A stretch of 64,000 nt of DNA from Candidatus Daviesbacteria bacterium (GCA_028687915.1 JAQTZF010000001.1:1966-65965), one strand, 5' to 3'; shown: positions 37,865-60,316, counted from the first letter of the stretch. A program made the numbers and translations. Notes: a model not told the origin generated them from the sequence alone.

Positions 37865-37913
37865 ATTATAACAATAACCAGCCTAAATTCAACACTCTTA
37901 ATATTTCAATGTT

Positions 37914-38339: not shown

Positions 38340-38440
38340 ATTTCTCTCCTTTCTTTAATGCAAATATGACATAACTTAATTTAAGCGTCAAATTTTTAAA
38401 CATTTTTGACAAATTTTATACAAAATGTTAAGATTTTAAC

Positions 38441-39091: not shown

Positions 39092-39167
39092 GTTTCCTGT
39101 TCTGTTATTTCTTCTTTGACTGGAATAATAAATAAAATTTAGGTCAACTTCCCGTCAAAGGATTTTT

Positions 39168-39192
39168 GCCACACTTTTTTAAAAAAGTGTGA
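39168..39192. terminator. Bidirectional intrinsic terminator between convergent genes
   Basis: Perfect palindrome CACACTTTTTT|AAAAAAGTGTG, with T-runs on both strands, between 38441..39091 (+) and gap (-). Confidence 0.55.
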
Positions 39193-39203
39193 GAATAAAA
39201 AGA

Positions 39204-40223
39204 TTACTTAGTAGAAATATTTAGAACTTGTTCTACAAGTCTATTGGAATATCCAAATTCATTATCATACCAAGCAAAAACCTTTACCAAATCCCCATCA
39301 ACCACCTGTGTTAGTGATAAATCAACAATGGCTGATTCTGATCTGCCTATAATATCTGAAGAAACCAAAGGTTCATCACTCCAGGTTACAATTCCCCTCC
39401 ACCTTGAATCATCACAAGCTTCTTTAATTGCCTGATTTATTTCATCAACTGATGTTTTGGTTTTTAGAAGAAAAGTAAAGTCACAAATTGAACCTAAAAT
39501 AACTGGTACCCTAATCCCTACCCCATCAAACAAACCTTTTAATTCCGGAATAACTTCTGTAGTAGAAATAGCAGCACCAGTGGTAGTGGGAATAATATTA
39601 GAATAAGCAGCCCTTGCCCTTCTTAAATCATTACTTTTACCACCTGGTGGTGGTCCATCAACTAAATTTTGTTCAGCTGTTATAGCATGGGTGGTAGTCA
39701 TTAAAGCTTTAGCAATTCCAAATTTTCCATGAATAATAGCTGCTACCGGAGCCACACAATTAGTGGTACATGATGCATTATTAATAAGTTGCTGATCAGT
39801 ATATTGATCCTGATTAACTCCCATTAAAAATGTAGCAACATTTCCCCCTTTTGAAGGAGCTGATAAAATTACTTTTTTGGCTCCAGCTAAAATATGTTGT
39901 TGTAAATCTTCTTCTTTGGTAAAACGGCCTGTGCATTCTAAGACCACATCAATCCCTAAGCTACTCCATGGGAGGTTTGCAGGAATCTTTTCTGCAGTTA
40001 TAGGGTATTTTTTGTTATCAATTATGATATTTTGGTCATCAGCAAAAACCTCTTTACCCCATCTACCATAGGCTGAATCATGCTGTAAAAGATGTGCCAA
40101 TACTTTACCTTCTGTTAAATCATTTATGGCAATAATTTCAATTTGCTCAGAATATTTTTCCAGGATAATTTTAAAAACAGTCCTGCCTATTCTCCCAAAA
40201 CCATTAATAGCAACTTTAATCAT
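39204..40223 (-). CDS. gap: Glyceraldehyde-3-phosphate dehydrogenase, type I
   Basis: KVAINGFGRIGR NAD-binding motif, active-site ASCTTNC, C-terminal WYDNEFGYS, 339 aa. Confidence 0.95.
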   Translation of the reverse strand: MIKVAINGFGRIGRTVFKIILEKYSEQIEIIAINDLTEGKVLAHLLQHDSAYGRWGKEVFADDQNIIIDNKKYPITAEKIPANLPWSSLGIDVVLECTGRFTKEEDLQQHILAGAKKVILSAPSKGGNVATFLMGVNQDQYTDQQLINNASCTTNCVAPVAAIIHGKFGIAKALMTTTHAITAEQNLVDGPPPGGKSNDLRRARAAYSNIIPTTTGAAISTTEVIPELKGLFDGVGIRVPVILGSICDFTFLLKTKTSVDEINQAIKEACDDSRWRGIVTWSDEPLVSSDIIGRSESAIVDLSLTQVVDGDLVKVFAWYDNEFGYSNRLVEQVLNISTK

Positions 40224-40236
40224 AAATAATATTTTT

Positions 40237-41097
40237 TTATTTTGTTGTTTCCTTATAACCAGTCGGTAAGACTAAATATTGATTAATATTAGTAATTTTT
40301 TCATAAACGAAAGTTATTGTTTGCCATGTATCGGTATCATTTATTCTATAAGAAAGCGTATTAATAAGTCCACTATTTTTATCAAAAGTAATTTTAATTT
40401 TAACAGACAAACCCTTAGCATCCAAAGGTGTTTTATAAGTAGTATCTGATTGCCATTCATTATCGCCAATTAATTGCCAAGTTTTACTTGAAGTATCTTC
40501 AATTAAGCCAAGCAAGGGTAATCCTGCCTTTGCCAATGACCAGTAGAACTTACCCATTTCTCCATTTAAATCTTCCTTTATATATTCTTTTTTAGAAGAA
40601 TCAAAAATATAGACTTGATTATCCTTAAACATCAGGATCTGTTGTTTACCTATACTGTTAACCTCACCCCTAACCAAACTGCCCATCTGGGTATAAAAAA
40701 TACCTCTATCAGCATCATATCGGATTGTACTGCTTCCAACCACCTTACCTGTTGTATCTGTCTGCTGTGTTTGAAATTCAATTTTTCCACTAGTATAAAT
40801 TTTATAATCAGCTGCTTTAAAAACAGCTGCGAAAGTTGTTATTAGATCAGTGGCTTGAGGAGGACTGCTTGGTGTAGCAGTCGGAATTGCTGTGACCGTA
40901 GAGGATAATTTTTGCTGAGCAACAGGAAGAGGGCTGGGTGAAACTTGAGGAATAGGTGTTGAAAGCTTTATAGCTGGTATTAAATTTGGATATTGAGTCT
41001 TTATTAAATATGATCCACCGACAATAGCTACTGAAATTAAGGCTATAATAATTATAAATACAATAACGGTAAAACCATTATTTTCTTTAGACAGCAT
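40237..41097 (-). CDS. Membrane-anchored hypothetical protein with a Ser/Thr/Pro-rich linker
   Basis: 286 aa, N-terminal TM helix, PIPQVSPSPLPVAQQ...TATPSSPP linker. No catalytic motif. Confidence 0.5.
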   Translation of the reverse strand: MLSKENNGFTVIVFIIIIALISVAIVGGSYLIKTQYPNLIPAIKLSTPIPQVSPSPLPVAQQKLSSTVTAIPTATPSSPPQATDLITTFAAVFKAADYKIYTSGKIEFQTQQTDTTGKVVGSSTIRYDADRGIFYTQMGSLVRGEVNSIGKQQILMFKDNQVYIFDSSKKEYIKEDLNGEMGKFYWSLAKAGLPLLGLIEDTSSKTWQLIGDNEWQSDTTYKTPLDAKGLSVKIKITFDKNSGLINTLSYRINDTDTWQTITFVYEKITNINQYLVLPTGYKETTK

Positions 41098-41236
41098 ATA
41101 AAATCAGAATATCACAGAAAGATCAAGCCTAACAAGTATCGCTAAAATTCTTAAGTTGACTCTATTATTATAGAAAAACTTTCTTCGTGATAATACATCG
41201 CAGGACGTTTATCTTAAATCCTGTTTAGACTGATGA

Positions 41237-42226
41237 TCATTTTAATGCTTCAATTGTAGGTAATTTTCCTGTTTCCAAAAACTTAAGCATTGCCCCACCT
41301 CCTGTTGAAACAAAAGAAAACATAGTTAAGTCAGATAAATAATTTAGATATGCAATTGTATCTCCTCCACCAATAATACTTTTAGCACCGGATTCAATAA
41401 CTAATTGAGCTATCCTTTCTGTTTGGTTATTTTTAGGGTTCTCAACCAATCCTAAAGGTCCATTCCACAACACAGAGGCTGCAGAAGAAATAACTGTAGC
41501 CCATTCAGATACTGTTTCAGGTGTAAGATCTTCACCATCTTCTGTTAAATCAGCTAACATAATATTTTCCGGAAGAGTTGTCTTACTGGCTGCCAGTTCT
41601 TTTGCTATCTTTCCTCCCACCAACACCTTATGTGCAATCTTAGATAAAGCTAAAGCTGCTGGTAGTTTATCTTCTACTTTTTCTCCTCCGATAATCACCA
41701 CTAAAGGTTTTATCGGGTGTTCCTTAGCTTCTGTTAAGAACAGAACTTCTTTGGAAAATTGTAATCCTGCAGCACGAGGTAACAACATGGGTAAAATGGT
41801 AGTTGAAGCAGACTTATGATGAGAAGCAAAAGCCTCATTAACATAAAAATTACCTAAAGCAGCAAGCTCTTTAGCATAATAAACACTAGCTTCCTCTTCC
41901 CCTTTTTCAAACCTTAAGTTTTCCAGAAGTTGTAATTTACCACTGTCCAATTCATCCTTAAAACCATGTTCTACCAGCCAATTAAAAATAGGGGCAACTG
42001 ATAATTCTTCCACTTTCTTCCCTTCTGGCCTGCCAATATGCCCCATGATAATTACCTTAGAAGCATTCTCCAGGCAAAGCTCTAGTGTAGGCATTCCAGC
42101 AACTAATCTAAAATCATCTGTCACACTGCTATCTTCTATAGGCACATCAATATCCAAACGGAGCAAAACTTTTTTACCTTTAACTAAGGGAGCAGAAACA
42201 ACTTGCATCTTTAAATCGTAACACAA
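41237..42226 (-). CDS. pgk: Phosphoglycerate kinase (unusually short, 329 aa)
   Basis: VLLRLDIDVP, IIMGHIGRPEGK, LENLRFEKGEE, YVNEAFASHHKSAST and IIGGGDT match PGK blocks. Forms a gap-pgk operon. Confidence 0.85.
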   Translation of the reverse strand: MCYDLKMQVVSAPLVKGKKVLLRLDIDVPIEDSSVTDDFRLVAGMPTLELCLENASKVIIMGHIGRPEGKKVEELSVAPIFNWLVEHGFKDELDSGKLQLLENLRFEKGEEEASVYYAKELAALGNFYVNEAFASHHKSASTTILPMLLPRAAGLQFSKEVLFLTEAKEHPIKPLVVIIGGEKVEDKLPAALALSKIAHKVLVGGKIAKELAASKTTLPENIMLADLTEDGEDLTPETVSEWATVISSAASVLWNGPLGLVENPKNNQTERIAQLVIESGAKSIIGGGDTIAYLNYLSDLTMFSFVSTGGGAMLKFLETGKLPTIEALK

Positions 42227-42292
42227 TTATAAAAGTAAAAAAATTATATAAAGACAAAAATACTATAAAATGTTACAATTACCCTCAGTTTT

Positions 42293-42364
42293 GGGCACGT
42301 AGTTCACTGGTAGAACGCTTCACTGATAATGAAGAAGTAGATGGTTCGATTCCATCCGTGCCCA
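42293..42364 (+). tRNA. tRNA-Ile (anticodon GAT)
   Basis: GGGCACG-TA-GTTCACTGGTAGAAC-G-CTTCA-CTGATAA-TGAAG-AAGTA-GATGGTTCGATTCCATC-CGTGCCC-A gives a clean cloverleaf. The anticodon loop CUGAUAA is as in E. coli tRNA-Ile. Confidence 0.85.
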
Positions 42365-42385
42365 CTAAATCCCTTTTTCCCTTTT

Positions 42386-42458
42386 GGTGCGGTGGCGAAG
42401 TGGAAACGCTGGGGTCTGCAAAACCTCGATTGCGCGAGTTCGATTCTCGCCCGCACCT
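42386..42458 (+). tRNA. tRNA-Cys (anticodon GCA)
   Basis: GGTGCGG...GGGGT-CTGCAAA-ACCTC...GCGAG-TTCGATT-CTCGC-CCGCACC-T. Discriminator U73, as is typical for tRNA-Cys. Confidence 0.8.
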
Positions 42459-42553
42459 CCGAGTCTTCGAGGAGGAAGAGAGAGAACAACATCTCTGAGT
42501 GAAGCGAAGAGTAGTGTTATTCTCGCCCGCACCTCTGAAGTAAACCTCTGAAA

Positions 42554-42817
42554 TTAGTTTTGCGGAAGAGGTGTATTTTCTGGGCTTTTTATCTCCTCAA
42601 CTTTTTTGGCAATATCTTTTCTACGTAAGCCCTCAAAAAATTTAATTATTCCACCTAAACCAGGAATAATTTCTGAAATAGGTTTAAATTCCAACTTTTT
42701 AGGATCAGGATTTTCAACATTAAACCATTCCTTATTACCAAAGGCATTTTCTAGAGTTGGTTCATGCTTAGTAGGCTGTTTAAGGTTTTTACCCTTTTCA
42801 CTTTCAGGATTATCCAT
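42554..42817 (-). CDS. Small hypothetical protein
   Basis: 87-aa hydrophilic ORF between the tRNAs and the 16S terminator. Coding status uncertain. Confidence 0.3.
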   Translation of the reverse strand: MDNPESEKGKNLKQPTKHEPTLENAFGNKEWFNVENPDPKKLEFKPISEIIPGLGGIIKFFEGLRRKDIAKKVEEIKSPENTPLPQN

Positions 42818-42849
42818 AGTGTTATTCTACACTATTTAAAAATTTCCAC

Positions 42850-42882
42850 AAAAAAACTCCCCGGAGGGAGTTAATTTTTATT
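42850..42882. terminator. Bidirectional intrinsic terminator just 3' of the 16S gene
   Basis: AAAAAAACTCCCCGGAGGGAGTTAATTTTTATT: a GC-rich palindrome CTCCCCGG/CCGGAGGGAG flanked by A- and T-runs. Confidence 0.55.
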
Positions 42883-43043
42883 AATTCCAAAAAAGTGGTG
42901 GGGAGGGTTTTTATAGAAGCCCTCAACTTCTATCACCATTTACCCTGAATTTCTTCAGAATAGCGTGAAGGTGATCTTGGATCAAACCATGGCTAACTGT
43001 TGCTTACGCATTTTCAGGAATCCTCCAGTTTGACCTAATCTCC

Positions 43044-44515
<1,472 letters not shown>

Positions 44516-44739
44516 AAGTGAATTTGTATCCAGCTCCACTAATAAATCAATGAAGCTTTCTACAAGCTTCACTCAAAGAATTGACAAAAGATTTTCCCTA
44601 ATAAATTAGGGATTGCACTCTTGTTTTTCGATTTACCTAGACTTGGTAAATCATTTTCCCACCACTTTTCCGGAATCAACAGCCTAAAAAGGCATGAAAA
44701 AACCGAAAAAGGGTAAAAACTTTTCCGGTTGTTAATGTG

Positions 44740-44881: not shown

Positions 44882-46276
44882 TCAAACAGCTGACTGGCTA
44901 GCTAAAGTTCTTAATCCGGGAATAGAATTTGGCTGATGATTTACCACTCTTTTAACATCTTCTTCCTCTGCTCTTTTTCCATTTTCGGCTATAGTAACTG
45001 GAATAAACTTTCTATTAAATTCCAAACCTCTTTTTAAAATTTCCAACCTAGATTGTAATCCCAATTTTCCAATTGCAGAAACAAATAAACGGTAAGATCC
45101 ATCACCTTGATAAAATAAACTAACTACTTCAAGGATATTTTTAGTTAAGATCCCGCTTTTTACAGCCTGGTTTTCTATCTCTGTGAGCATATTAGCTGCT
45201 ACTATCCTCGCATCAATTATTTCCTCCCCTTCAGCACCTTCAATAACAGATTCTACAGCCAATTTTAAAACCTCATCTCTGTTTGCTAAAGCATCTTCAT
45301 CTAGAACAAATTTATACTGAGCTTCTTTTTGAACTCTCTCTTCAGCTTTTTCGATTGCTTCAACTTCCTCCACAACTGATACTTTTTGTTCTGATTTTAA
45401 TTGTGCTTGAACCATCATTTGAGTAACAATTTCAGGTTCATTTCCTGCTTGAATTAAAGCATTTTCAACTAATTCAACTGCCTGGGTTTCAGCTATTCCT
45501 GCTGTAATTAAGCTTTCATAAGCTATGGTTGCCTGAGCTATTTCAGGATAAGCTTGATCACTTATTTGAAGTATTTCTGATGTTTCTATTGAAGTTGTTA
45601 CTATCTCAGATAAAGCTGGAGATTGTTCTGATAATGAAACCAGTTCTTCTGCTGCTTTAAAAACTGGTTCGTCATTAATTTGATCCGTATCCAAAGAGAT
45701 TAATTCTGGAATTGGTTGATGAATAATATTTTCATCTATTAAATCAAAAATAGCTTCAGATTGAACAATTTCTTCAATCACTGGTGCTTTCAAATCCGCA
45801 AATTCTTCTGGTTGAGAGATTGGTTCTTCAATATCTGGCATAAAATTTGTTTGTTCAAAAATAGTATCTATGTTTGTTTCTATCGGGATATCAAAAACAC
45901 TTGAAGGTCTTGAAGATTCTAAAATTGATTCTAAATATGTGGGTGGTGTTAATATATCTTCTGCAAAATTATCTGTAAAAGCTTCCTGAAAAATTTGAGG
46001 TACCTCAAAACTTGGTATTGTAGGATCTAAATTTATATCAGCTAAACTCTCATTAAAAATTGACGGAATTGGAGTTATATCTATTGAAGGACTACTAAAA
46101 ATATCTACACCTGGATTTAAAGATCCCCCACTTAAGCCTGATGTTTCAAAAGAAGAAAAATTACTAAAAGAGGAAAATTCTGAACCCATACCGATTCCAG
46201 GGCTGGAAAGCGCAGATATACCGGCACCGACTGAAGAAAAGCTATCTACTGAGATTGATTCTCCTTCAATACTCAT
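44882..46276 (-). CDS. Acidic, Ser/Glu/Ile-rich hypothetical protein
   Basis: 464-aa ORF, strongly acidic and low-complexity at the N-terminus, with a more ordered C-terminal ~150 aa. Immediately upstream of the 16S leader. Confidence 0.5.
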   Translation of the reverse strand: MSIEGESISVDSFSSVGAGISALSSPGIGMGSEFSSFSNFSSFETSGLSGGSLNPGVDIFSSPSIDITPIPSIFNESLADINLDPTIPSFEVPQIFQEAFTDNFAEDILTPPTYLESILESSRPSSVFDIPIETNIDTIFEQTNFMPDIEEPISQPEEFADLKAPVIEEIVQSEAIFDLIDENIIHQPIPELISLDTDQINDEPVFKAAEELVSLSEQSPALSEIVTTSIETSEILQISDQAYPEIAQATIAYESLITAGIAETQAVELVENALIQAGNEPEIVTQMMVQAQLKSEQKVSVVEEVEAIEKAEERVQKEAQYKFVLDEDALANRDEVLKLAVESVIEGAEGEEIIDARIVAANMLTEIENQAVKSGILTKNILEVVSLFYQGDGSYRLFVSAIGKLGLQSRLEILKRGLEFNRKFIPVTIAENGKRAEEEDVKRVVNHQPNSIPGLRTLASQSAV

Positions 46277-46404: not shown

Positions 46405-49400
46405 ATGCTCACAAAACTAACAGATTTCATAAAAAATTACTGGAAAATCGGGATTTTTATTTTAATTCTTCTTTCAGTCCCCCTTACAGTCTTTCTGGTC
46501 ACTCAAACACAAATTTTCAGAAGCCGTGCTTCTGCCATCCCTGTGGCTTTTGAAGGAAACGGGGTAACTTATACTAACGGCCAATATTTTACTTCAACTC
46601 TAACCGGCATTAAATTAAAATTAACGTCTCCTTTTGCAACTTCCGGTACTCAATCATTTAATGCAGGCAGCACTCAGGATTTCTATGGAAAAAGGCTTAG
46701 CTTTCTTAAGCTTTTCGGACAGACAAAAATCACAGAAGCTGTTAGAAATGCCGCCACAGGGCATAATATTTATCACGCTCCAGGTGTAGTGGTAGATAAA
46801 AGCAGTACGCCGAATAAAATTTATGAGGTAGATTCAGGAAACAGCAGAATTTTAGGGTTTAACGGGATCGGATATTGTTCTCAAAATCCAGCTCAGTCTT
46901 GCACTATTGATAGTGATTGCGGGACTGGAAATAGCTGTAATATAGACGGGAATAAAAATGCAGATATTGTTTTTGGTCAACCTGATTTTGAAAGCGGAGC
47001 CTGTAACAAAGATGCAAATCTCGGAATTAGCAAAAAACCCGATGCTTCTTCTCTTTGTTTTATGGGTTATCCTGTAGCTACTAACACAGCTGAAGCCTGG
47101 CAAAGAAACAATATTGAAGTTGACAGCGAAGGAAATCTTTATGTGGCCGATTATTGGAATAACCGAATATTAAAATATAATCAGCCTTTCAGCCAGGATA
47201 AAACAGCAGGCAAAGGTGACACTGTGGCTGATTTTGTTTGGGGTCAAAATGATTTTTCCTCCAACGGAATCAATCAGATTAATCCGTATTTCAGCACTTC
47301 AACCAGAACACCATCTAATAAATCTTTGTGGATCAGTTTTGGCTTTGGAACAGCAGATCATGTTTCATCACGCGGAGTATCAGTTGATGCACAAAACAAC
47401 CTTTGGGTGGCTGATACTTTTAATAACCGTGTCCTTCGTTTTCCCAAAGATTCCCAAACTGCTGATCTTGTGCTAGGACAGGCTGATTTTAATTCTTTCG
47501 GTTGTATTCCTAATGGTCCTTTAAATAGATTTTGTACACCAACTTTGGCAAGAATAGATCCTGAAAATGGCGATCTTTATGTTTCTGATGAATATCCGAA
47601 TAGTTTTCGTGCTAGAATTCTGGTTTTTCACCCTCCGTTTACTAATGGTATGGCAGCTTCAAAAAGCATTGTTATCAACCAAGGTCCACCCTGGTTTGAA
47701 GGCAGATATTTATTTCAATCAACAGGTTTTAACTTTAATCCATTCAAAGAAGGAGAATACGCAGCAGGGAGACTTTGGATCAATGAGCTTTCTGCCTACC
47801 GGACTACTTTAATTGACGCAAATGGCAACATTGTTAAAGTCATCGGAGCAACAACTAATACTGGCCAGGGTGGCGATACTCAATACGGTAGTGAATGCGG
47901 TGATATATATAATCCCGCTCAATTCAATTTATGGTGGCCTGGAGGATCGATTGGTTTTGACAGCGCAAACAACATTTATTTATCCGATGAATTTTTTGGC
48001 CGTGTTTCCAGATATAAACTGCCTTACCAGCTACGAACAGTTGGAACTAAAACTTGTTTACCACTTGCAAATGGAGGTTTATTCCCAATGAGTAAAAGCA
48101 TCAAACAGGATAACAGATTAGGTGAATCAATCGGATTAGTAGTGAATAATAACCAGTTGATTATTAAAGATGAAAGCTCAATCAAAGTTTGGAATGATTA
48201 TTTACAAAAATCCATCGGCAGTAATCCCGATATAATACTCACAGGCGGCATGCCGACAAGAATTTTATTCAGTGATGCTGTTGATGAAAATAACAGGTTG
48301 TGGATGTATACAGACAGAGGTGATTTACGTGTATATCAACTTCCGTTTAAAGGCAATGATGTGCCTTTGACTGATAATATAAAACTATATTGGAAAGATG
48401 ACGGGACAGCGGTCAATGCTCATTTTTGGGAAACAGGGTTGACTGTAGATAAAGTAAACAAAGCCATTTATATCTCTGACAGAGAGAAAAACAGAGTACT
48501 CAGAATAAGCAACTATAATGAATTTTTAAATCACGCTAACAACAACTTATTAGTTGATTTGGTTCTGGGACAATCAGATAAAACCGGCGCATTGTGTAAT
48601 CACGGAAGCAACACACCTTTAGCTGACGGAATATGTTCACCTTATGGATTAAAATTTGATAAAACAGGTAATCTTTTTCTGATCGAAAATAATTATGAAT
48701 GTCACGGTAATGACCGTATTTCTATTTTCACGGCGTCTGATCTGAAGAATGCTTCAGGTTTATTCCCCATGTTAAAGGCTCAAAAAGTACTTATTGCAAA
48801 TGACCTGACTTCCAAAGGACCATGTGCATATACCACAGTAGATAAACCTGGCTCCCCTGTCAGTTTAGCTTTTGATAGTCATAATCGCCTGGTTGTGGGA
48901 AATGACGGATATTATGGAGACAATCAAAAAAGACAATTAAAGCAATTGTGGTATTACTCAGATCCGTTAAATAAAACTACCCCTGACAAATCAATAGAAT
49001 TGCCCATAGGCAGCGCAGGAGAACTTGCCTTTGATAAAGATGATAATCTGTTTATCCAGGATCATACTTGGTACAGGGTTTGGGGTATTAATTATTATCA
49101 GGATGATGATTGGGGAATTATATCCACCACCACACCCACACCTACCCCTACACTTATTTCTACACCTACAGCTACAGCTATTCCGACACCAACCTCAGCT
49201 CCCGAGCCAAAAACATGTGCACAAGTAATTACTTCAGCTATGAATCCTTTAACCGGAAACTGTGAAGAATTCCCAAGCCCCTGTGAGGTACCATCAGGCT
49301 GGACATTAAATTGCACAAGTCCTGTTGTTACAGCAACTCCAACCCAATCTCCAAATCCTAACCTTATTTCTTATGGTGCTTTCAGCTACACAACTTCAGC

Positions 49401-50634
49401 CGATAATGTTCAACATGTTTCTCAATCAATTCTGGCTGATAACGGATATGCTTATGGCCGGACTTGCATCGTGGAAAATGGTCAGGTAAATTGTGACGGA
49501 ACCAGATTCCCCTGGACCAAAACTGTCGCAAGCGCTCCTGACGGATCCAACATTAAAATAATTTCTTACGGAGCATTTTCATATGATTCAAATGGACAAC
49601 AAAAAGCAGTGCAATCCTTAATCGGTGAGGACGGAACCAGCTTTTCCAGATCATGCAATGTAGGAGCCACTGATCTGAATTTATCTGCAACAGCATGCCC
49701 ATGGACTAAAGATCCGAATAAACTAGGCATACCTATGCCAAATCAACCGGCAGGAAAAATTATTGGTTATGAAGCCTTCAGCTATAAAACATCCGCCGAT
49801 GGCAAGGAACATGTGTCAATGTCTCTACTAGCAAATAACGGATATTCATACGGACGTACATGTAACATAGAAAGTGGTCAGGTAAATTGTTCTTCTGCTA
49901 CAAGTTCTTGGAGCAGGTCTGCAATTGATCCGAATGTTATTGCTTACGGGGCTTTCTCGTATTATGCAGATAGTCAACAAAAAATAGTACAAAGTTTGAT
50001 TAATAAAAATGGTTCTACATCTTACAGAACTTGCAACACCAATCCTGACGGCCTTAATTTATCAACCTCAGTATGTCCCTGGCAATACGGAACAATAGCT
50101 GTTCCTACAGTTCTGGGAGCAAGTATATCGGCCGATAATGTTAAAGGGTTGGCTTTGGCAGCAGGAAATTCTATAAATTTTAAGCTTGCCAAAAATCCTG
50201 TTGATTTATCAGGTGCCCAAACTCAATCACTTACTTCTGATCCAATGATTATTGATTTTAATTTTGATAAATCCAATCCCGATCCTGGTTATTCTGAAAC
50301 AATATTTGTCCAATTTATCAATAGCAACGGACAAATAGATAACCGCCAGGCTACTATTACTTATCAACCAGCTACAACAACTACATCCATACCCGCTACT
50401 GTTTCTAACCCCACCTCTACATCAAGCATCCAAAAAAGTTCCGTCATAAAGGGTGATTTAAATAATAATAGTTCACTTGATTTAGGCGATATGTCAGTGA
50501 TTTTATCCAAATGGAGTTCATCATTAACAGGAGTTGTTTCTAACGCTGATCTTAATGGGGACGGTAAAGTTAACAGCTTTGATTATTCTTTAATGTTAAA
50601 TCTGCTCACTAATGCTAAAGTTATTCACAACTAA
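46405..50634 (+). CDS. Large secreted protein with an NHL-repeat beta-propeller, 4 x ~70-aa internal repeats, a Thr/Pro linker and a C-terminal dockerin
   Basis: The likely start is MLTKLTDF...IFILILL (TM/signal), in frame with the ORF that opens at 46255. NHL-like blades YVADYWNNRILKYN, WVADTFNNRVLRFP, YLSDEFFGRVSRY and YISDREKNRVLRI. Repeats ISYGAFSY..., IGYEAFSY... and IAYGAFSY.... C-terminal DLNNNSSLDLGDMSVI...DLNGDGKVNSFDYSLML matches a dockerin type I duplicated Ca-binding motif. Confidence 0.75.
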   Translation: MLTKLTDFIKNYWKIGIFILILLSVPLTVFLVTQTQIFRSRASAIPVAFEGNGVTYTNGQYFTSTLTGIKLKLTSPFATSGTQSFNAGSTQDFYGKRLSFLKLFGQTKITEAVRNAATGHNIYHAPGVVVDKSSTPNKIYEVDSGNSRILGFNGIGYCSQNPAQSCTIDSDCGTGNSCNIDGNKNADIVFGQPDFESGACNKDANLGISKKPDASSLCFMGYPVATNTAEAWQRNNIEVDSEGNLYVADYWNNRILKYNQPFSQDKTAGKGDTVADFVWGQNDFSSNGINQINPYFSTSTRTPSNKSLWISFGFGTADHVSSRGVSVDAQNNLWVADTFNNRVLRFPKDSQTADLVLGQADFNSFGCIPNGPLNRFCTPTLARIDPENGDLYVSDEYPNSFRARILVFHPPFTNGMAASKSIVINQGPPWFEGRYLFQSTGFNFNPFKEGEYAAGRLWINELSAYRTTLIDANGNIVKVIGATTNTGQGGDTQYGSECGDIYNPAQFNLWWPGGSIGFDSANNIYLSDEFFGRVSRYKLPYQLRTVGTKTCLPLANGGLFPMSKSIKQDNRLGESIGLVVNNNQLIIKDESSIKVWNDYLQKSIGSNPDIILTGGMPTRILFSDAVDENNRLWMYTDRGDLRVYQLPFKGNDVPLTDNIKLYWKDDGTAVNAHFWETGLTVDKVNKAIYISDREKNRVLRISNYNEFLNHANNNLLVDLVLGQSDKTGALCNHGSNTPLADGICSPYGLKFDKTGNLFLIENNYECHGNDRISIFTASDLKNASGLFPMLKAQKVLIANDLTSKGPCAYTTVDKPGSPVSLAFDSHNRLVVGNDGYYGDNQKRQLKQLWYYSDPLNKTTPDKSIELPIGSAGELAFDKDDNLFIQDHTWYRVWGINYYQDDDWGIISTTTPTPTPTLISTPTATAIPTPTSAPEPKTCAQVITSAMNPLTGNCEEFPSPCEVPSGWTLNCTSPVVTATPTQSPNPNLISYGAFSYTTSADNVQHVSQSILADNGYAYGRTCIVENGQVNCDGTRFPWTKTVASAPDGSNIKIISYGAFSYDSNGQQKAVQSLIGEDGTSFSRSCNVGATDLNLSATACPWTKDPNKLGIPMPNQPAGKIIGYEAFSYKTSADGKEHVSMSLLANNGYSYGRTCNIESGQVNCSSATSSWSRSAIDPNVIAYGAFSYYADSQQKIVQSLINKNGSTSYRTCNTNPDGLNLSTSVCPWQYGTIAVPTVLGASISADNVKGLALAAGNSINFKLAKNPVDLSGAQTQSLTSDPMIIDFNFDKSNPDPGYSETIFVQFINSNGQIDNRQATITYQPATTTTSIPATVSNPTSTSSIQKSSVIKGDLNNNSSLDLGDMSVILSKWSSSLTGVVSNADLNGDGKVNSFDYSLMLNLLTNAKVIHN

Positions 50635-51443: not shown

Positions 51444-52682
51444 ATGGCTCGTACTGAAACCAAACCTTCTCATATTTCTTTAGCAGGTATTTTACATGAT
51501 GCCAGAGAAACTTCTGCACGAGGCCTCCGATATATACCAAGAATATCTTTAGTCGCAATTGTTGGTCTTGCCGGTTATTTTGCGATAACCAAACCTAATA
51601 ATCCAAACGTTCAGTTAAATGTACCCATAGGTGCATCGGATACCTTTAGCTCTTCTGATAAACATGGTACATCTTTGCTATCCTATATAGATTTAAGGAA
51701 TCCTGCTTCAACAGAACAATTATCAGCAGAACAGACCATGGGAATGCTACAAGCACTCCAGCAAAAAATTGATACAAGTACCAGCCAAAAAGCAAGCTGG
51801 ACAAATGCAGGAATTGTTTATCATGTTCAGCCAGGAGATACTCTTGACAATTTAGCCGCAAGATATGGAATCAGACAAGATCAAATTAAAGATATGTCAA
51901 ATATAACCGGGCAAAAGGCTACAGTAACAGGCAAGCTTTGGGAAGGTCAAGTGTTTCTGCTACCAACAAATAAAAAACCTGATTCCCCTTTTGATGAAAT
52001 ATATAGTAAGGCTGGATCTGATTTGGCTCAACTCAAAAGCAATCCCTCCTCTGACGTAACAAGCAGAATTGAAAGTTACTGGAATACAGCACCAAAAAGA
52101 GTTGAAAGAGCACCTGCACCACAAGTTATTGTTGATCCTGAAGCAATAGATGGAAACACTACTGCTCAAATAGTTACAGGACTAACCAGTAAATTACCAA
52201 AACTAGGTCAAGGAGTTGATAGAATTATTATTCAACCACAACGAAACCCTAACTCTGATAAAAATGATCCTGGTGCCTATATGAGTCAATCCGAAGGAAA
52301 AACAACCTTGTATTTTTCTATGGATCCAAATAAACCATTAAGCAAAGAACGCACATTATCCCTACTTGTAAATATGATAGCTTGCTCGGGAAGTATTTAT
52401 AATCCTAACTCATCTCAATTCTTTACACCAAAAGAACTTATTGCGTTAGAGTCACAAGATACTCAAATTTCTAACGAGACATATAAACTTTATCCTGGAA
52501 CAGTCAGAATTGCATCACACGAAACAGCACTTATTCAGGAAATTGTCAAAATGGCAACAGGAAAAAAAGACAGTCCTGCTAATTCCCAAGAAGCAGAAAT
52601 CAGTCGCCAAACAGATAACCTTATTAATGATTGGGCAAAGATATATCTAGGTGTAGATAACCTTGCAAATATTGCTAGATAA
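51444..52682 (+). CDS. Membrane-anchored LysM-domain protein (paralog 1, lacks HExxH)
   Basis: A TM helix, then the LysM motif YHVQPGDTLDNLAARYGIRQDQIKDMSNI. The C-terminal domain shares IVDPEA and DTQISNETY blocks with the downstream paralog. Confidence 0.6.
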   Translation: MARTETKPSHISLAGILHDARETSARGLRYIPRISLVAIVGLAGYFAITKPNNPNVQLNVPIGASDTFSSSDKHGTSLLSYIDLRNPASTEQLSAEQTMGMLQALQQKIDTSTSQKASWTNAGIVYHVQPGDTLDNLAARYGIRQDQIKDMSNITGQKATVTGKLWEGQVFLLPTNKKPDSPFDEIYSKAGSDLAQLKSNPSSDVTSRIESYWNTAPKRVERAPAPQVIVDPEAIDGNTTAQIVTGLTSKLPKLGQGVDRIIIQPQRNPNSDKNDPGAYMSQSEGKTTLYFSMDPNKPLSKERTLSLLVNMIACSGSIYNPNSSQFFTPKELIALESQDTQISNETYKLYPGTVRIASHETALIQEIVKMATGKKDSPANSQEAEISRQTDNLINDWAKIYLGVDNLANIAR

Positions 52683-52808
52683 TAAGTTCTCTATAAGCCT
52701 TGCTTATGTTAATTAAAAAAGATTTGGAATATCTATTGCCAAATCAAATAAAACTAAAGTCCAGGAGATCCTTACTAAAACACTTTTTAACTAAAGGAGG
52801 TATCCCTA

Positions 52809-54152
52809 ATGGCTCTTGAAGAACATATTGAAGAATCAGTCAATCACAGCCTTCCCTCTTCAAGAGAAGTGCTCAAAGAAATTACAGAAGCCAGCCGCGG
52901 AACACTAAAATGGGCAGCCAATCATTGGAGAGGCTTAGCCCTTGGTACTGCATTGGTAATCAGTAGTGGGATGGGTATAAGTAACGCTTCTGCCATTACA
53001 AAATATGTTTCTGAAAATACTCCTACTATTCAAACAACAGCTGAACAACCTTTAGCCAGCCCTTTATTCTCTAATAACCAATCTATTGAAAATATTTCAA
53101 ACAATCCCTTAAAAAAACAGCACGAGCGCTTAGAAACAGTTGTTTCTGTTGAACAAACATCTTTAATGTTACAAGACATAAATAATAAAGTTGAAGAGAT
53201 TTACAACATCAGAAGTAATTGGGAAAGTGGAAAATCATATACAGCAAAAAAAGGAGATACCTATGAATCTATTGCAGCAGCCAACAATACAACCATAGAT
53301 AAAATTTTACAAATAAATAAACGCCTTAGCCCAAAGTCACTTCCTGAAGGTGAAAGGTTTATTCTTCCTGTAAGCAATCTACCTGTACCATACTTAGGAA
53401 AGATTTTTGACCAAGCTAAAATTGATTTAAATGAATTAGAAAAAATAAGGAATGAAAAAGGTGCAAGCTCACAAGAAGCAAAAGATATGGCTCAACGTAT
53501 TTACCACCAATGGAACACCTCTCCAGCAGAATCAACTCCAAACACACCTCCTAAAATCATTATTGACCCAGAGGCTAAAAATAGTGAATTTATCGCTCAA
53601 CAAATTCAAAAGTCTATTGATCTGATGCCCGGCTGGGGACGCGTAGTTAATCAATATATTATCGTTCCCCGTAGCGTCATGCCTGATTTCTTTGCACCCA
53701 TGGGCACTGTTATATTTCCAGACAAAGGCGCTGATGTTTATGTTTTTGATATGCCAAGTAAGCCTGACAGAAACGGTAAATTAGAGCCTTGGACTGAAAG
53801 GTGGTTACAGGTAGATCTTTTACACGAAAATATGCATGCTGCCAGTATATATGAAGAGTTTTCTTCTCGTTTATTTTCTCCAATAAAGTTAGTAGAGCTA
53901 ACCCTTAAGGACACACAAATCTCTAACATGAGTTATCTTGTTCACCCTCAAACATCCAGGATAAGCGAACGCGATGAAGCTGCTGCTTGGGAAGGTGTAA
54001 AATTATTTACAGTCAGACCTGAAACAACTCAACTTCCACCTGATATGGCGCTTGAAAAAGATGAATTAGATTTTGCAAAAGAAAACCTAACACCAATATT
54101 AGGACCTGATTTTGATTATATTCAAGCAAGTCAAAAATTAGGTATTCAATAA
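52809..54152 (+). CDS. Membrane-anchored LysM-domain protein with an HExxH motif (putative Zn metallopeptidase; paralog 2)
   Basis: A TM helix, then LysM YTAKKGDTYESIAAANNTTIDKILQINK. The C-terminal domain has VDLLHENMHAASIYEE (HExxH). Confidence 0.55.
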   Translation: MALEEHIEESVNHSLPSSREVLKEITEASRGTLKWAANHWRGLALGTALVISSGMGISNASAITKYVSENTPTIQTTAEQPLASPLFSNNQSIENISNNPLKKQHERLETVVSVEQTSLMLQDINNKVEEIYNIRSNWESGKSYTAKKGDTYESIAAANNTTIDKILQINKRLSPKSLPEGERFILPVSNLPVPYLGKIFDQAKIDLNELEKIRNEKGASSQEAKDMAQRIYHQWNTSPAESTPNTPPKIIIDPEAKNSEFIAQQIQKSIDLMPGWGRVVNQYIIVPRSVMPDFFAPMGTVIFPDKGADVYVFDMPSKPDRNGKLEPWTERWLQVDLLHENMHAASIYEEFSSRLFSPIKLVELTLKDTQISNMSYLVHPQTSRISERDEAAAWEGVKLFTVRPETTQLPPDMALEKDELDFAKENLTPILGPDFDYIQASQKLGIQ

Positions 54153-54217: not shown

Positions 54218-55234
54218 ATGAGTCTTCACAAAAAAATCAAAGCTCATTTAGCAAAAAAACATAAACACCATATGGAAGAAAGCTCACAACCCCCTATTTT
54301 AGAAACCAGTATTAGAAAAAAAGGTAATTTTGATATAAATTTAATTACTCAAAAACTCAAAAATCCATTAATTTTAGTTCCTTTAGTTATACTAATCCTT
54401 TCAATTTTAATTGCTGGGTTTTTATATTTTAATAAACAAAATCTCACTCTTCCCTCTCTTAATACTATTGATTTAACAAAAGGTAAAATTACTGATCTAC
54501 AAGATAATTTAGGATTCTATATTGAACAAGCTCCAGAGGTTTGTGATCAAAATAATTTAACTAAAACTTTTAAATCTTTTGTAGTACCTGGAGAAACCGG
54601 AAAACCTACTAAAAGCGGAGCACATTCTGTTTATGGGGAAACTACCTGGAATTACATGCTACAAGGTGAAATATCTAAAATTGAAACCATGCCAACTGGA
54701 ATTAAATATACTTTAATAAGTGGAGAAGATACCTTAATCACCCAAAGCACAAATAATACCGTTGCCTGGAAACCAGAGCCTGTAAAAGTTGACGTTTCAT
54801 CATTTGCACTAAAAGATAAAGTGCGTCTCTACTATTTGGTTAAATGCGGAGAAAACAAACCTCCCCTCCTTTTTCTAGAATATATCCAAAAAACAGCCAC
54901 AACTACTGCTAAACAACCTGCCATTGCCACAAGCTCTGGTGGATTAAAAACCAGGAGTAATAATTGGCAGGGTTTTAGAGGTACAGTAAAGGAAAAGGGA
55001 GCAAATTCCTTAACTTTAGTTAGTGAAGGACAAACAATGAAAATTGAAATCGGAAGTAATGTGCATTTACGGATTATTAATGAATCTGAATTAAAGAAAA
55101 ATCCAGAACTTTATTTAAAACAACCACCTCAGGAAGCTTCAATTTCCGGAGTAAAAATTGGTGAAACAGTTGACGCTACAGGAGAGATTGATGGTACAAC
55201 ATTTAAAGCTAAATCAGTTATTATTATTAGGTAA
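54218..55234 (+). CDS. Membrane-anchored hypothetical protein
   Basis: 338 aa with a single N-terminal TM (LILVPLVILILSILIAGFLYF). No motif recognised. Confidence 0.5.
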   Translation: MSLHKKIKAHLAKKHKHHMEESSQPPILETSIRKKGNFDINLITQKLKNPLILVPLVILILSILIAGFLYFNKQNLTLPSLNTIDLTKGKITDLQDNLGFYIEQAPEVCDQNNLTKTFKSFVVPGETGKPTKSGAHSVYGETTWNYMLQGEISKIETMPTGIKYTLISGEDTLITQSTNNTVAWKPEPVKVDVSSFALKDKVRLYYLVKCGENKPPLLFLEYIQKTATTTAKQPAIATSSGGLKTRSNNWQGFRGTVKEKGANSLTLVSEGQTMKIEIGSNVHLRIINESELKKNPELYLKQPPQEASISGVKIGETVDATGEIDGTTFKAKSVIIIR

Positions 55235-55238
55235 AACT

Positions 55239-56918
55239 ATGAATATAAAAATAAAAATCATAATCATATTTATAGCTTTTTTTACTTTTCAGTTTCTTGT
55301 TTTTGCTCCTAAACCAGCTTTAGCCTGCAGTGCTGGATGCAGTGGTTGTGCTCCATCAGGATATCCAGGAGATGCTTGCGGATCAGGATCTGCGTGGTGT
55401 ACCGATGGCACAGAAAATGAATACGGTTCTTGTAATGGTTGGTCTGAATCTTGTTGTAGTTATGGCGGAGCTGCTTCAGCTGGAAATAATGTAGGAGGTT
55501 ATTTGAGAAATGCTGCTACTAATCAACTGTTGAACGGAAGAGAAATTGACTGGGTAGATAAACTAGGCAATATTCGTAAACGCTGGACAGGTCCACCAAG
55601 TTTCCCAGACGGAGGATACTGGTTTGCAGACTGGCTAAGTATTAGTGGTACTAAGCGCACTGAAGAATATGGTAGTTATCCATTAGCACCATGGGTATCC
55701 AACACCTATCAATATGAAGCCTTTAGCGGAGCTCAAAACCCCCATACCATGACTGCAGTCCGTCCTAGTGGATGGTATGGATACATGCTTCCTGTTAACT
55801 TTGATGTAGTTGCTAGTCCTCCGGATCCAGTTCTTGTAGATTTATGGTATAAACCACCTCCTACTGCTCACTTCATTACCGGTAATAATATTAGCACTCT
55901 GGTAAATACCCAGCTAAACTTTAATACCTATATACAAGATGATGGTAGTGGTATTAGAGGTGCTCAGATATTTGTTGCCAAAACAAACGGTGGTACTAAT
56001 GTAACATCCTGGGGGCCAACGACATCAACTCCTTGTTCTGGAGGCGTTGATGGAAGTGGACGATGGTGTCTATTAGCACAAAGTCCTGCATACAACCCCG
56101 CCGTAAACCCTCTAAATTTCCCTGCTTCATGGATCCCAACTGTCACCGGAACTTATGTTGTAGCAGTTAATGCATATAATCCCAATCCCAGTGGTATGTG
56201 TTCAGGGAACCCTGTTGATACAGGCTTTGCCAGATGTGATGCTTCTGGAAACGATATAGTCACTGTTACTGTTTCATATCCTGGCTATGTTGCCTGTCCT
56301 ACTGCCTGTGGTAGTGCAGCCAGCAATCAACCAGATGGTGCTGGTGGTACTCACTATTGTGCAGCAGTTACTCCTCCTGCCTATGTTGCCTGTCCTACTG
56401 CCTGTGGTAGTGCAGCCAGCAATCAACCAGATGGTGCCTGTGGTACTCATTATTGTGCAGCCCCAGCTGCTTGTCCTACTCCACCCCCTCCTACTATTGT
56501 GATTCCAACACCTACTACACCACCTACACCAACTACTACCCCTGTTCCCACATTTTGTATTACAAATTCATATCTGGGAAGTGGGTTTGGTATCTCCTGG
56601 ACTAATCCTGCAGGTTTCCCTGTTACTTTTGTTGATATCAGCTCCAACAGCAGCTTTTCATCCTATTACAATAAGGCTGTTAGCGGTACATCAACCACTG
56701 GTCCTAATGGTTTTTGTCGGGCACCATATACCGGTACTTGTGATAGCACCAAAAACCCTTTAAGTATTTTACCAAATGTTACTTATTATGTGAGACTATA
56801 TAATGGGGTTGCTTCTAATGGTGGTCATGGTCCCTCCACCTCTTTTGGACCTATCCCCAGCTGCCCAAGAGCACCATTCTTAAAAACCAGTGGTGGAGAT
56901 GTTCATTTAAATCAGTAA
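55239..56918 (+). CDS. Secreted Cys-rich protein with an internal perfect tandem repeat
   Basis: Signal peptide MNIKIKIIIIFIAFFTFQFLVFAPKPALA. The start at 55239 avoids overlap with the upstream gene. The ORF frame opens at 55158. YVACPTACGSAASNQPDG(A/C)GGTHYCAA is duplicated. PTPTTPPTPTTTP linker. Confidence 0.6.
   Translation: MNIKIKIIIIFIAFFTFQFLVFAPKPALACSAGCSGCAPSGYPGDACGSGSAWCTDGTENEYGSCNGWSESCCSYGGAASAGNNVGGYLRNAATNQLLNGREIDWVDKLGNIRKRWTGPPSFPDGGYWFADWLSISGTKRTEEYGSYPLAPWVSNTYQYEAFSGAQNPHTMTAVRPSGWYGYMLPVNFDVVASPPDPVLVDLWYKPPPTAHFITGNNISTLVNTQLNFNTYIQDDGSGIRGAQIFVAKTNGGTNVTSWGPTTSTPCSGGVDGSGRWCLLAQSPAYNPAVNPLNFPASWIPTVTGTYVVAVNAYNPNPSGMCSGNPVDTGFARCDASGNDIVTVTVSYPGYVACPTACGSAASNQPDGAGGTHYCAAVTPPAYVACPTACGSAASNQPDGACGTHYCAAPAACPTPPPPTIVIPTPTTPPTPTTTPVPTFCITNSYLGSGFGISWTNPAGFPVTFVDISSNSSFSSYYNKAVSGTSTTGPNGFCRAPYTGTCDSTKNPLSILPNVTYYVRLYNGVASNGGHGPSTSFGPIPSCPRAPFLKTSGGDVHLNQ
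56287..56472 (+). repeat. Two ~93-nt near-identical tandem units (in-frame duplication)
   Basis: TATGTTGCCTGTCCTACTGCCTGTGGTAGTGCAGCCAGCAATCAACCAGATGGTGC... occurs twice consecutively, with only ~3 differences. Confidence 0.85.
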
Positions 56919-56937
56919 GGATTAAGTTTACAAAAGA

Positions 56938-57930: not shown

Positions 57931-58058
57931 TATTCTATACCTAAAATACTAAAATTTACAACTTTTTGATTGAATTGGCTTACCTCACTATGCTACATTT
58001 AAATGAAGTATAAGCAAAGCTTGAAAATAAGTTTTCAGCTGCGCTTTCAAACTTATTT

Positions 58059-58430
58059 ATGAAACAACGCTTATCTTTAGGAGTTAGAATTTTTGGCTTG
58101 TTATTAATATTACCCCTACTTGGTATTGCTTTCTCTCCCCCACTAAAAACCAATGCAGCTTGCGTTAGTCCAACAGATTCTCCAATCCGTGTTAATGATG
58201 GATTAGTTTCTGCTATAGATGTTGGAAACATTTCTCCTTTAACTAATGTTAATTGTGTAAGCGGAGGTTCTGCATCAATTCCTCAATTTTCTCTCCCAAC
58301 TTATGATTCTATGATGCGGGATTATTTTGATCAGGCAAAAAGCTCCTATAATAAAATTACTGTTTCTGGCCCTGCTGTTCAGGATTCAACAGACGCTAAT
58401 CCAGATCCTATAAATCTGGTTTCTTTCTAA
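58059..58430 (+). CDS. Small secreted hypothetical protein
   Basis: 123 aa with a signal peptide (LLLILPLLGIAFSPPLKTNAA). Confidence 0.4.
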   Translation: MKQRLSLGVRIFGLLLILPLLGIAFSPPLKTNAACVSPTDSPIRVNDGLVSAIDVGNISPLTNVNCVSGGSASIPQFSLPTYDSMMRDYFDQAKSSYNKITVSGPAVQDSTDANPDPINLVSF

Positions 58431-58495
58431 ATTAGTATATTTTTTTTAAATAAAATTTGTTTGACATTTACCCTAAATTATGTCTACATTAAATT

Positions 58496-60301: not shown

Positions 60302-60316
60302 TTTACCATTTTAAAT

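Follow-up and report, generated by a model that had tools for sequence, protein, structure and literature searches.

A dockerin-bearing NHL-propeller protein in a Candidatus Daviesbacteria genome

Dockerin domains are widely annotated outside cellulosome producers, CPR bacteria included, so a dockerin alone is no surprise. Indeed, non-cellulosomal dockerins have been catalogued in all three domains of life (Peer et al. 2009, as cited in PMC6487960). Within the CPR, Ca. Shapirobacterales, a Microgenomates lineage, expresses genes with cohesin domains and genes with dockerin domains (Bell et al. 2022; PMC9123182), and the same paper cites Geesink et al. 2020 for a "cellulosome" in Ca. Roizmanbacterium. 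In a cultivated Saccharibacterium, a dockerin-domain envelope protein, SEML1_0315, is essential (PMC10633639). An earlier note on the DNA described here started from a lineage not known for cellulosomes; this is a weak premise in view of the cohesin and dockerin genes of sister Microgenomates, although our literature search for Daviesbacteria with a cohesin or dockerin found no report.

Attachment to other cells is the presumed way of life of CPR bacteria, but very few of their attachment proteins are understood. Here we analyze a gene for a dockerin-bearing protein within a window of 64 kb, which is the whole stretch of DNA considered. Both NHL and dockerin are already picked up in this exact protein by standard Pfam annotation. 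The mix of two modeled NHL propellers, a rare predicted four-bladed propeller and a dockerin is interesting but not unprecedented, as dockerins outside cellulose degraders, CPR included, are already on record.

The gene and its product

The DNA belongs to the MAG of a tiny, uncultivated Ca. Daviesbacteria bacterium (Patescibacteria/CPR, Microgenomates), and the product (Table 1) is identical to NCBI protein PHQ59_00190 (P0001), 1409 aa. The open reading frame reported earlier is real, but translation gives 1409 residues, not 1410. A longer reading from a TTG at 46255 finds no support, since the identical NCBI record has 1409 aa and homologues begin at the same N-terminal helix. The gene is monocistronic, with a divergent gene upstream and a convergent gene downstream, and has no operon partner. 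A promoter and terminator scan around it gave counts no higher than shuffles, save for a marginal terminator excess.

Table 1. Features of the gene and its product, in window coordinates
Feature	Residues (aa)	Position	Strand	Basis or remark
Whole gene		46405..50634	+	ATG at 46405, TAA ending 50634; 1409 codons + TAA
Putative N-terminal signal/anchor	1-44	46405..46536	+	basic n-region, 18-residue hydrophobic helix aa 15-32
Short conserved N-terminal module	45-84	46537..46656	+	IPVAFEGNGV...KLKLTSPF; kept in P0121-P0126
Conserved core	85-905	46657..49119	+	~12 four-stranded blades
Four-cysteine insert in first propeller	158-178	46876..46938	+	CSQNPAQSCTIDSDCGTGNSC; consensus GxCx6Cx5Cx5C
Canonical NHL signature 1	249-258	47149..47178	+	DYWNNRILKY; Pfam NHL best stretch aa 239-258
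Canonical NHL signature 2	337-346	47413..47442	+	DTFNNRVLRF; sequence
Thr/Pro-rich linker	906-935	49120..49209	+	sequence; pLDDT < 50
Four-cysteine segment	936-972	49210..49320	+	KTCAQVITSAMNPLTGNCEEFPSPCEVPSGWTLNC; no family match; low model confidence
Four ~60-67-aa repeats	988-1229	49366..50091	+	A-B-A-B, 2 Cys each
Beta-rich spacer	1240-1322	50122..50370	+	two strands predicted, low confidence (pLDDT < 50)
Ser/Thr-rich linker	1323-1348	50371..50448	+	sequence
Dockerin	1349-1401	50449..50607	+	Pfam Dockerin_1
Ca-loop 1	1351-1362	50455-50490	+	DLNNNSSLDLGD, then MSVILSKW...
Ca-loop 2	1382-1393	50548-50583	+	DLNGDGKVNSFD, then YSLMLNLL...

The C-terminal 480 aa are almost without relatives, and the protein resembles a P0121-type gene with the core inserted. 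Both observations would fit an assembly chimera or a pseudogene, the domain mix then being an artefact of joined unrelated contigs. This explanation is hardly credible, as the 4.2-kb frame is unbroken with an even GC content (0.38-0.39), and the order from core to dockerin is the same in homologues P0002 and P0009. Moreover, the identical protein and its flanks occur both in the NCBI MAG and in a second, independent assembly, on an 11.8-kb Logan contig (SRR22315507).

The window is rich in envelope genes: LysM proteins, LamG giants, pilin-like proteins and glycosyltransferases. A bAvd-like gene between the LamG giants raised the idea of a diversity-generating retroelement, which was set aside: the repeats there are the two giant genes, which are tandem paralogues, and no RT was seen.

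At the N terminus, the hydrophobic helix is followed by TQTQIFRSRASA, which holds an A-x-A site read from the sequence. A leader of the form helix plus [TQ]Q..[RK]S[RK]A is shared with P0002, P0121-P0124, P0126 and P0128, and the short module after it is 39% identical to the N terminus of P0121, a stand-alone repeat protein. The helix could be either a cleaved signal or a retained anchor. Together with the A-x-A site and the 26 cysteines of the whole protein, which are arranged in pairs, it suggests an exported, multi-module protein of the cell surface.

Propellers and linkers ahead of the dockerin

The 821-aa core is read as resembling two tandem six-bladed NHL-type beta-propellers. Its model (pLDDT 93, pTM 0.92) is one compact unit of ~820 aa, and the six-bladed fold can be superposed on solved NHL domains. 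Pfam NHL (PF01436) scores 50 bits against a cut-off of 20, with clear stretches at aa 239-258 and ~337, and canonical signature 1 matches Pizza/PknD-type blades. The NHL propeller announced in the earlier note is thus borne out by Pfam, but its motif, said to recur at least five times, is found in strict form only twice, the remaining blades being degenerate. Against the teneurin NHL domain (PF25021), the core scores under the gathering threshold. The consensus of the four-cysteine insert is retained across 56 homologues, with weak matches to Dickkopf_N and Myxo_Cys_RPT; its cysteines probably form disulfides, which would fit an extracytoplasmic location.

The ~820-aa double-NHL family has >2000 members, is common to CPR bacteria and DPANN archaea, and extends to Chloroflexi and Verrucomicrobia. 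It is large, well conserved and horizontally exchanged, and its members are always joined to interchangeable C-terminal surface modules. In homologues, the slot after the core holds SLH, CBM_4_9, F5/8-type-C, PA14, PKD, FlgD-Ig or Big domains, which are anchoring or glycan-binding types; Dockerin_1 is present in 7 of the 120 top-ranking core homologues, one of the 7 being the identical NCBI record P0001. A search of genome contigs for related loci returned distant NHL proteins (23-48% identity) of other phyla. Source annotations of the family are generic (YvrE, YncE), and a literature search on NHL proteins in CPR and DPANN found nothing. We know of no ligand or activity for any member.

Beyond the core, the TTTPTPTPT linker is present as described (aa 908-916). 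The first residues of the four repeats are aa 988, 1053, 1120 and 1179 (periods 65, 67 and 59), and the repeats give off-register BLASTP matches up to E 4e-25. Four cysteine-containing repeats had been correctly recognized, but the NGxxYGRTC motif assigned to all of them is confined to the two A-type copies. The repeats are predicted, with moderate confidence, to form a four-bladed hemopexin-like beta-propeller, the topology seen in a model built on a 3-sequence alignment. A Pfam search of aa 988-1229 gave no match, Hemopexin (PF00045) included, even at E ≤ 1. The module, which we read as lectin-like, is very rare, with 18 matches among 1.84 billion representatives; two relatives of the repeat module, P0125 and P0128, also end in dockerins. 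To our knowledge, no function has been described for it. The spacer that follows is possibly Ig-like and has no family match and no homologue.

Is this cargo enzymatic? No GH, PL, CE or CBM domain was found in the protein with Pfam and NCBIfam, so the dockerin is not joined to a recognizable carbohydrate-active enzyme. The proposal of a non-glycoside-hydrolase module therefore stands as far as CAZy-type Pfam domains go, but the partner modules of the homologues (CBM_4_9, F5/8-C, PA14, SLH) are typical of glycan-directed proteins. The protein might instead be one of the enzymes of a genuine complex of cellulosome type, in which the NHL core would be an extracellular catalytic module (for example a lyase, a lactonase-like or a glycan-processing enzyme), the four-bladed propeller would serve as a carbohydrate-binding module and the dockerin would sit on a scaffoldin, as in cellulosomal enzymes; we regard this as improbable.

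The dockerin and its possible partner

The C-terminal dockerin with duplicated Ca-loops proposed in the earlier note is confirmed by Pfam: Dockerin_1 (PF00404) scores 27.3 bits against a curated cut-off of 22.9 (E 4.2e-6), over profile positions 1-56 of 57. In both 12-residue loops, EF-hand positions 1, 3, 5, 9 and 12 are D or N; the loops start 31 residues apart, and helices are predicted directly after them (aa 1363-1378 and 1394-1407; low confidence), giving the two tandem ~22-residue loop-plus-helix segments of a dockerin. From these residues, Ca2+ binding is likely.

A generic EF-hand pair, or a chance low-complexity D/N-rich tail, might look similar. The Pfam score is only 4.4 bits above cut-off, loop 1 has drifted (NNNSS instead of NGDGK), and the AF2 model, in which a three-helix dockerin fold would show, is of low confidence over this segment (pLDDT < 50, the alignment there being a single sequence). 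However, when the last 74 aa were compared with PDB sequences, the best match was 2y3n_B (9.6e-5), then 4fl4, 2jnk (4.9e-4) and 1daq, so the leading matches, at E 1e-4 to 1e-3, are all dockerins. Indeed, the top 20 are dockerin-bearing chains (E 1e-4 to 0.05), whereas calbindin and calmodulin appear only from E 0.12. Translated in all six frames, the window has no further such Ca-loop, and in the closest homologues, P0002 and P0009, the orthologous dockerins score 36 and 35 bits and share the motif ...LS(K/R)W...DLNGDGxVNxxDYSxM.... The presence of orthologous dockerins in both argues that the module is conserved, not accidental. The generic reading is already largely refuted, and we consider it very unlikely.

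We lean toward a model in which the N-terminal signal or anchor helix would carry the protein across the membrane, the propellers would bind, or perhaps process, a ligand outside the cell that is probably a glycan or a polymer of the envelope, and the dockerin, loaded with two Ca2+, would dock without a covalent bond onto a cohesin-type module of a second surface protein. This putative partner, which the earlier note took a dockerin to imply, would be encoded elsewhere in the genome. The model is supported by the NHL and Dockerin_1 scores above Pfam cut-offs, by the dockerins that are the nearest solved relatives of the C terminus, by the conservation of the dockerin in homologues, by the sequence signs of export, by the anchoring and glycan-binding modules that share the slot in homologues, by the envelope-rich neighborhood, and by the co-occurrence and expression of cohesin and dockerin genes in another Microgenomates lineage (PMC9123182).

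Several results weigh against it. Cohesin (PF00963) had no match in the 39 ORFs of at least 120 aa in the window, none appeared at E ≤ 10 in its 10 little- or un-annotated ORFs, and an HMM of CipA cohesins had no match in all its six-frame ORFs; the cohesin query sequence was validated against 1aoh. Nor was a cohesin found beside the dockerin-bearing homologues. A cohesin-like module seen by eye in P0002 (aa ~935-1075) was dropped: it had no Pfam match at E ≤ 1, no PDB sequence match at E ≤ 10, and no word-index match, and neither an HMM nor hhalign built from solved CipA cohesins gave a signal. The monocistronic gene, the low-confidence dockerin model, the drifted loop 1 and the core family's want of a known ligand or activity count in the same direction. 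Outside cellulosome producers, a dockerin that has no cohesin to go with it is common, and many dockerin-bearing genomes are reportedly without a cohesin. Moreover, should the N-terminal helix stay uncleaved as an anchor, the protein could remain on the cell without help from its dockerin.

An orphan dockerin is favored by the lack of a cohesin in the window and near the homologues, by the hydrophobic N-terminal helix and by the frequency of such dockerins elsewhere. Were there no cohesin in the genome, the C-terminal module could be a Ca2+-stabilized end-cap or could bind something else, for instance a polymer of the cell wall, an S-layer or some component of the host's surface, while the N-terminal helix holds the protein; the direct wall and glycan binders (SLH or CBM) found in this slot elsewhere in the family would accord with that. 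However, the window is 64 kb of a 1,096,538-bp contig, so the cohesin search covered ~6% of the 1.1-Mb genome, and sister Microgenomates reportedly have genes with cohesin domains. In addition, the orthologues keep the Ca-coordinating positions and both helices, as under selection for a specific interaction. An orphan module is the less likely case, though one to be taken seriously.

A surface protein in which a plug-in dockerin is joined to a strongly conserved propeller head, itself passed on horizontally, would offer a concrete candidate case of modular surface display among the CPR. A bolder version, which we hold to be speculative and rather unlikely, is a non-cellulolytic cohesin-dockerin "adhesosome" that mounts on the cell surface a double-NHL head exchanged between CPR and DPANN and an undescribed four-bladed lectin-like propeller, and recognizes envelope glycans of a host or prey.

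Comparison with known systems

Like the other CPR dockerin reports (PMC9123182, PMC10633639), ours concerns a putatively secreted dockerin-domain protein; one of those genomes also has cohesin-domain genes. Those reports rest on domain annotation, and none has an NHL-propeller cargo or concerns Daviesbacteria.

Among six-bladed NHL domains (M. tuberculosis PknD sensor 1rwi, NHLRC2 6g7w, SOQ1 7djl, TRIM71, PAL 3fw0, teneurin), no solved structure spans the whole core. Here the model has two propellers fused into an 820-aa unit with an added four-cysteine insert, and the signatures of the second propeller are degenerate. With four-bladed hemopexin-fold propellers (chickpea lectin 3s18, hemopexin 1hxn, MMP/vitronectin PEX), the repeat module has no sequence relationship (5-12% identity); its repeats are longer (59-67 aa), of two alternating types, each with a Cys pair.

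The cellulosomal type I dockerins of C. thermocellum CelS (1daq) and Xyn10B (1ohz) and of A. cellulolyticus (5nrm) share PF00404, the duplicated 12-residue loops and the C-terminal placement after a Ser/Thr linker. In contrast, loop 1 here is atypical (NNNSS), the cargo contains no domain of a glycoside hydrolase, lyase or esterase, and no scaffoldin was detected in the 64-kb window. A type I dual-binding mode is doubtful, since the recognition residues at positions 10-11 and 17-18 lack symmetry, being LG/LS in one segment and SF/LN in the other.

The non-cellulosomal dockerins of C. perfringens (NagH/mu-toxin, PDB 2jnk/2ozn) likewise consist of two Ca-loop/helix segments on a secreted non-cellulase, in an organism that makes no cellulosome, and 2jnk ranks high in the PDB sequence comparison above. 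There, cohesin partners are known and complexes have been solved, whereas no cohesin was found for the present protein in the window or beside its dockerin-bearing homologues; its cargo is a double NHL plus a four-bladed propeller, as modeled, and the organism is a CPR bacterium.

Gene integrity and the double-NHL core

The target, a predicted surface protein, is encoded by an uninterrupted plus-strand ORF whose TAA stop ends at 50634, as read in the window. The mechanical ORF opens at a TTG at 46255; starting from the ATG at 46405 gives a 1409-aa product, which is identical to an NCBI protein of 1409 aa over its full length and aligns at its N-terminus with the N-termini of homologues. That the gene is an assembly chimera is exceedingly improbable. 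An independent Logan assembly (SRR22315507) yielded the identical gene between the same neighbours, which rules out an artefact of assembly. The gene has uniform GC content along its length. The upstream neighbour is divergent and the downstream neighbour convergent, leaving the target without an operon partner. The other genes and features of the window are collected in the table.

Features of the target (aa) and of the window (nucleotide positions)
Feature	Position	Strand	Sequence or remark
Dockerin loop 1	aa 1351-1362		DLNNNSSLDLGD
Dockerin loop 2	aa 1382-1393		DLNGDGKVNSFD
Four-cysteine segment	49210-49320 (aa 936-972)		KTCAQVITSAMNPLTGNCEEFPSPCEVPSGWTLNC; between T/P linker and repeats
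Two giant proteins	162-9616		1409+ and 1597 aa; six Laminin_G_3 domains each
23S-rRNA-IVP / bAvd-like four-helix protein gene	4438-4812		between the giants
ABC transporter	13506-15031
Three AMP-binding-like paralogous ORFs	15028-16308, 16310-17599, 21872-23149	-	N-termini near-identical
Three NMT1-like binding-protein paralogues	18724-21879
Two pilin-like proteins	29290-31944		N-terminal methylation motifs; the one at 30793-31944 (-) carries a Laminin_G_3 domain
5S rRNA	32053-32169
23S rRNA	33520-37153	-	two group I introns, 33917-34196 and 34809-35064
16S rRNA	43046-44516	-
Acidic Ser/Glu/Ile-rich protein	44882-46276	-	464 aa; no family match
Two LysM-domain paralogues	51444-54152		N-terminal anchors; directly downstream of the target's convergent neighbour
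Secreted/anchored protein without family	55158-56918		Cys-rich N-terminus
Secreted/anchored proteins without family	58059-58430, 58496-60301, 60317-61174, 61171-62130

The Laminin_G_3 giants are paralogues in tandem (nucleotide identity 76-95%, spacing ~5.1-5.2 kb), and neither a reverse transcriptase nor a DGR-type pair of template and variable repeats was seen. The AMP-binding-like ORFs flank the ABC transporter, an aminotransferase and the NMT1-like paralogues.

The NHL domain claimed for the target is borne out by Pfam (50 bits; curated cut-off 20). The motif D.(W/F)NNR(I/V)L(K/R)(Y/F), described earlier as repeated at least five times, is present, but its strict form occurs only twice (aa 249 and 337); there are also two looser copies (aa 143 and 692) and four more that are degenerate (aa 395, 528, 768 and 886). 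The core (aa 85-905, read as two tandem six-bladed propellers) belongs to a large family with 2011 matches at E<=1e-5. The best 120 of these, with labels from Patescibacteria, Aenigmarchaeota, Chloroflexi and Verrucomicrobia, share 38-65% identity across ~58% of the query. In Aenigmarchaeota, which are DPANN archaea, the ~800-aa core is 55-59% identical (P0004, and P0015 at 10001-13156 of locus L021). One such copy, at 55% identity, lies on a 786-kb contig amid genes for the archaeal ribosomal proteins S27e and L44e, for GINS and for an archaeal primase, and the family therefore crosses the boundary between bacteria and archaea. The pattern indicates that a large surface module has been transferred across domains, between bacteria and archaea of ultra-small size.

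The region C-terminal to the core varies among homologues, which carry SLH, CBM_4_9, F5/8-type-C, PKD, FlgD-Ig or Big domains there; 7 of the 120 best of the 2011 homologues have a dockerin, counting the NCBI record identical to the target (P0001). In two proteins the extra modules precede the core (PA14 in P0050, dockerins in P0117). The target dockerin thus fills the anchoring or glycan-binding slot of the family, which is the main argument for a role in surface attachment. Large, common to CPR and DPANN organisms and, to our knowledge, without one member of known function, the double-NHL family is of more interest than the dockerin itself; a literature search for NHL proteins in these groups found no paper on it.

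The C-terminal dockerin and the search for a cohesin

The C-terminus scores 27.3 bits against Pfam Dockerin_1 (aa 1349-1401), above the curated cut-off of 22.9, in agreement with the dockerin claimed for it. Both loops have Asp/Asn at EF-hand positions 1, 3, 5, 9 and 12, with a predicted helix after each, the sequence pattern of the established dockerin "F-hand" duplication. Loop 1 has simply drifted and reads NNNSS instead of NGDGK. In a search of all PDB sequences with just the last 74 residues, the first matches were dockerins, with 2y3n_B at the top (9.6e-5), followed by 4fl4, 2jnk/2ozn and CelS 1daq; 2jnk/2ozn is the non-cellulosomal NagH dockerin of C. perfringens. Calbindin and calmodulin matched only at E > 0.1. 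This ranking argues against the generic EF-hand or low-complexity region that the earlier note had named as the alternative, and a tail that is EF-hand-like by chance is very improbable. The AF2 model of the dockerin, built on a single sequence, has pLDDT < 50. The module is conserved: orthologous dockerins (36 and 35 bits) occur in P0002 and P0009, the two closest homologues that bear one. A scan of all frames found no further dockerin-like loop elsewhere in the window.

A dockerin raises the question of its partner. Cohesin searches in the source genome span the window, ~6% of the 1.1-Mb genome. The Pfam cohesin model matched none of 39 window ORFs of at least 120 aa and, at E<=10, none of the 10 with little or no annotation; the sole further window ORF is a cytoplasmic FAD-type enzyme. 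An HMM from solved CipA cohesins, whose sequences had been validated beforehand, matched none of the six-frame window ORFs, and no cohesin was seen on the contigs of three homologues that bear a dockerin. If the window does encode a divergent cohesin-like fold, the ORFs without family at 55158-62130 are the only place left for it. Where the target has its four-repeat module, its closest homologue P0002 (locus L017) has a ~140-aa beta-rich module (aa ~935-1075); a cohesin-like module was suggested there by eye and not supported, with no Pfam, PDB-sequence, cohesin-HMM or hhalign match.

An orphan dockerin, serving some purpose other than cohesin binding while the target's own N-terminal helix holds the protein, is possible and rather unlikely. 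On balance we favour a cohesin-partnered arrangement: the target would be exported to the cell surface, where its propellers would bind a glycan-type ligand outside the cell (processing of this ligand is less likely), and the dockerin, once loaded with Ca2+, would plug into a cohesin-type module of another surface protein. Compatible with this model, and less likely again than the orphan dockerin, is a truly cellulosome-like arrangement in which the core would be a new enzyme acting outside the cell.

The four repeats and the leader

The TTTPTPTPT linker noted previously is present (aa 908-916). The four-cysteine segment that follows has no family match and a low-confidence model. The four repeats in the C-terminal part are real and begin at aa 988, 1053, 1120 and 1179, each with one Cys pair; two types follow one another in the order A-B-A-B, and the NGxxYGRTC motif ascribed to all of them occurs in type A only. 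They match no Pfam family. Relatives numbered 2 in 5.8 billion proteins by word-index search and 18 in 1.84 billion cluster representatives by exhaustive phmmer; the module is very rare.

Most of these relatives are small secreted proteins sharing the target's unusual leader, a hydrophobic helix followed by [TQ]Q..[RK]S[RK]A (also written [TQ]Q.[IFL][RK][ST][RK]A) and often by EPIxFxGxGV...TSPLGPP. The leader is common to this group of CPR secreted proteins, namely the target (46405-46656), the repeat-module relatives P0121-P0124, P0126 and P0128, and P0002; no other protein of the window has it. A lineage-specific signal for sorting or processing is a possible role. The target is 39% identical to P0121 at the N-terminus and 62% in the repeats, and it looks like a P0121-like protein with the NHL core inserted and a beta spacer and dockerin appended. 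Of the relatives, P0125 and P0128 likewise have C-terminal dockerins, and P0131 carries an M23 peptidoglycan peptidase. This very rare module, predicted to be a four-bladed propeller, is of more interest than the target's dockerin.

Lineage and known dockerin systems

NCBI names the source organism "Candidatus Daviesbacteria bacterium" (Patescibacteria group, Microgenomates group). The rRNA genes of the window agree, the 16S being unlinked from a 23S with two group I introns; unlinked rRNA genes and 23S introns are typical of CPR genomes. In this rRNA region (32053-44516), PGK, GAPDH and other genes lie between 16S and 23S, as do tRNA-Ile/Cys, which are encoded on the other strand. Peer et al. 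reportedly catalogued, in 2009, cohesin-like and dockerin-like modules of the non-cellulosomal kind from all three domains of life (as cited in PMC6487960).

Genes with cohesin and dockerin domains are expressed in Ca. Shapirobacterales, of the Microgenomates (Bell et al. 2022; PMC9123182), and Ca. Roizmanbacterium is covered by Geesink et al. 2020, as cited by Bell et al. 2022 (PMC9123182). The essential genes of a Saccharibacterium include one for a dockerin-domain envelope protein (Wang et al. 2023; PMC10633639). A literature search found no dockerin or cohesin report for Daviesbacteria specifically. Dockerins in such organisms are thus already on record and not new: the earlier note was right about the domains and overstated the surprise of finding a dockerin in a lineage not known for cellulosomes. 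The target belongs among the non-cellulosomal dockerin-bearing surface proteins, a known kind.
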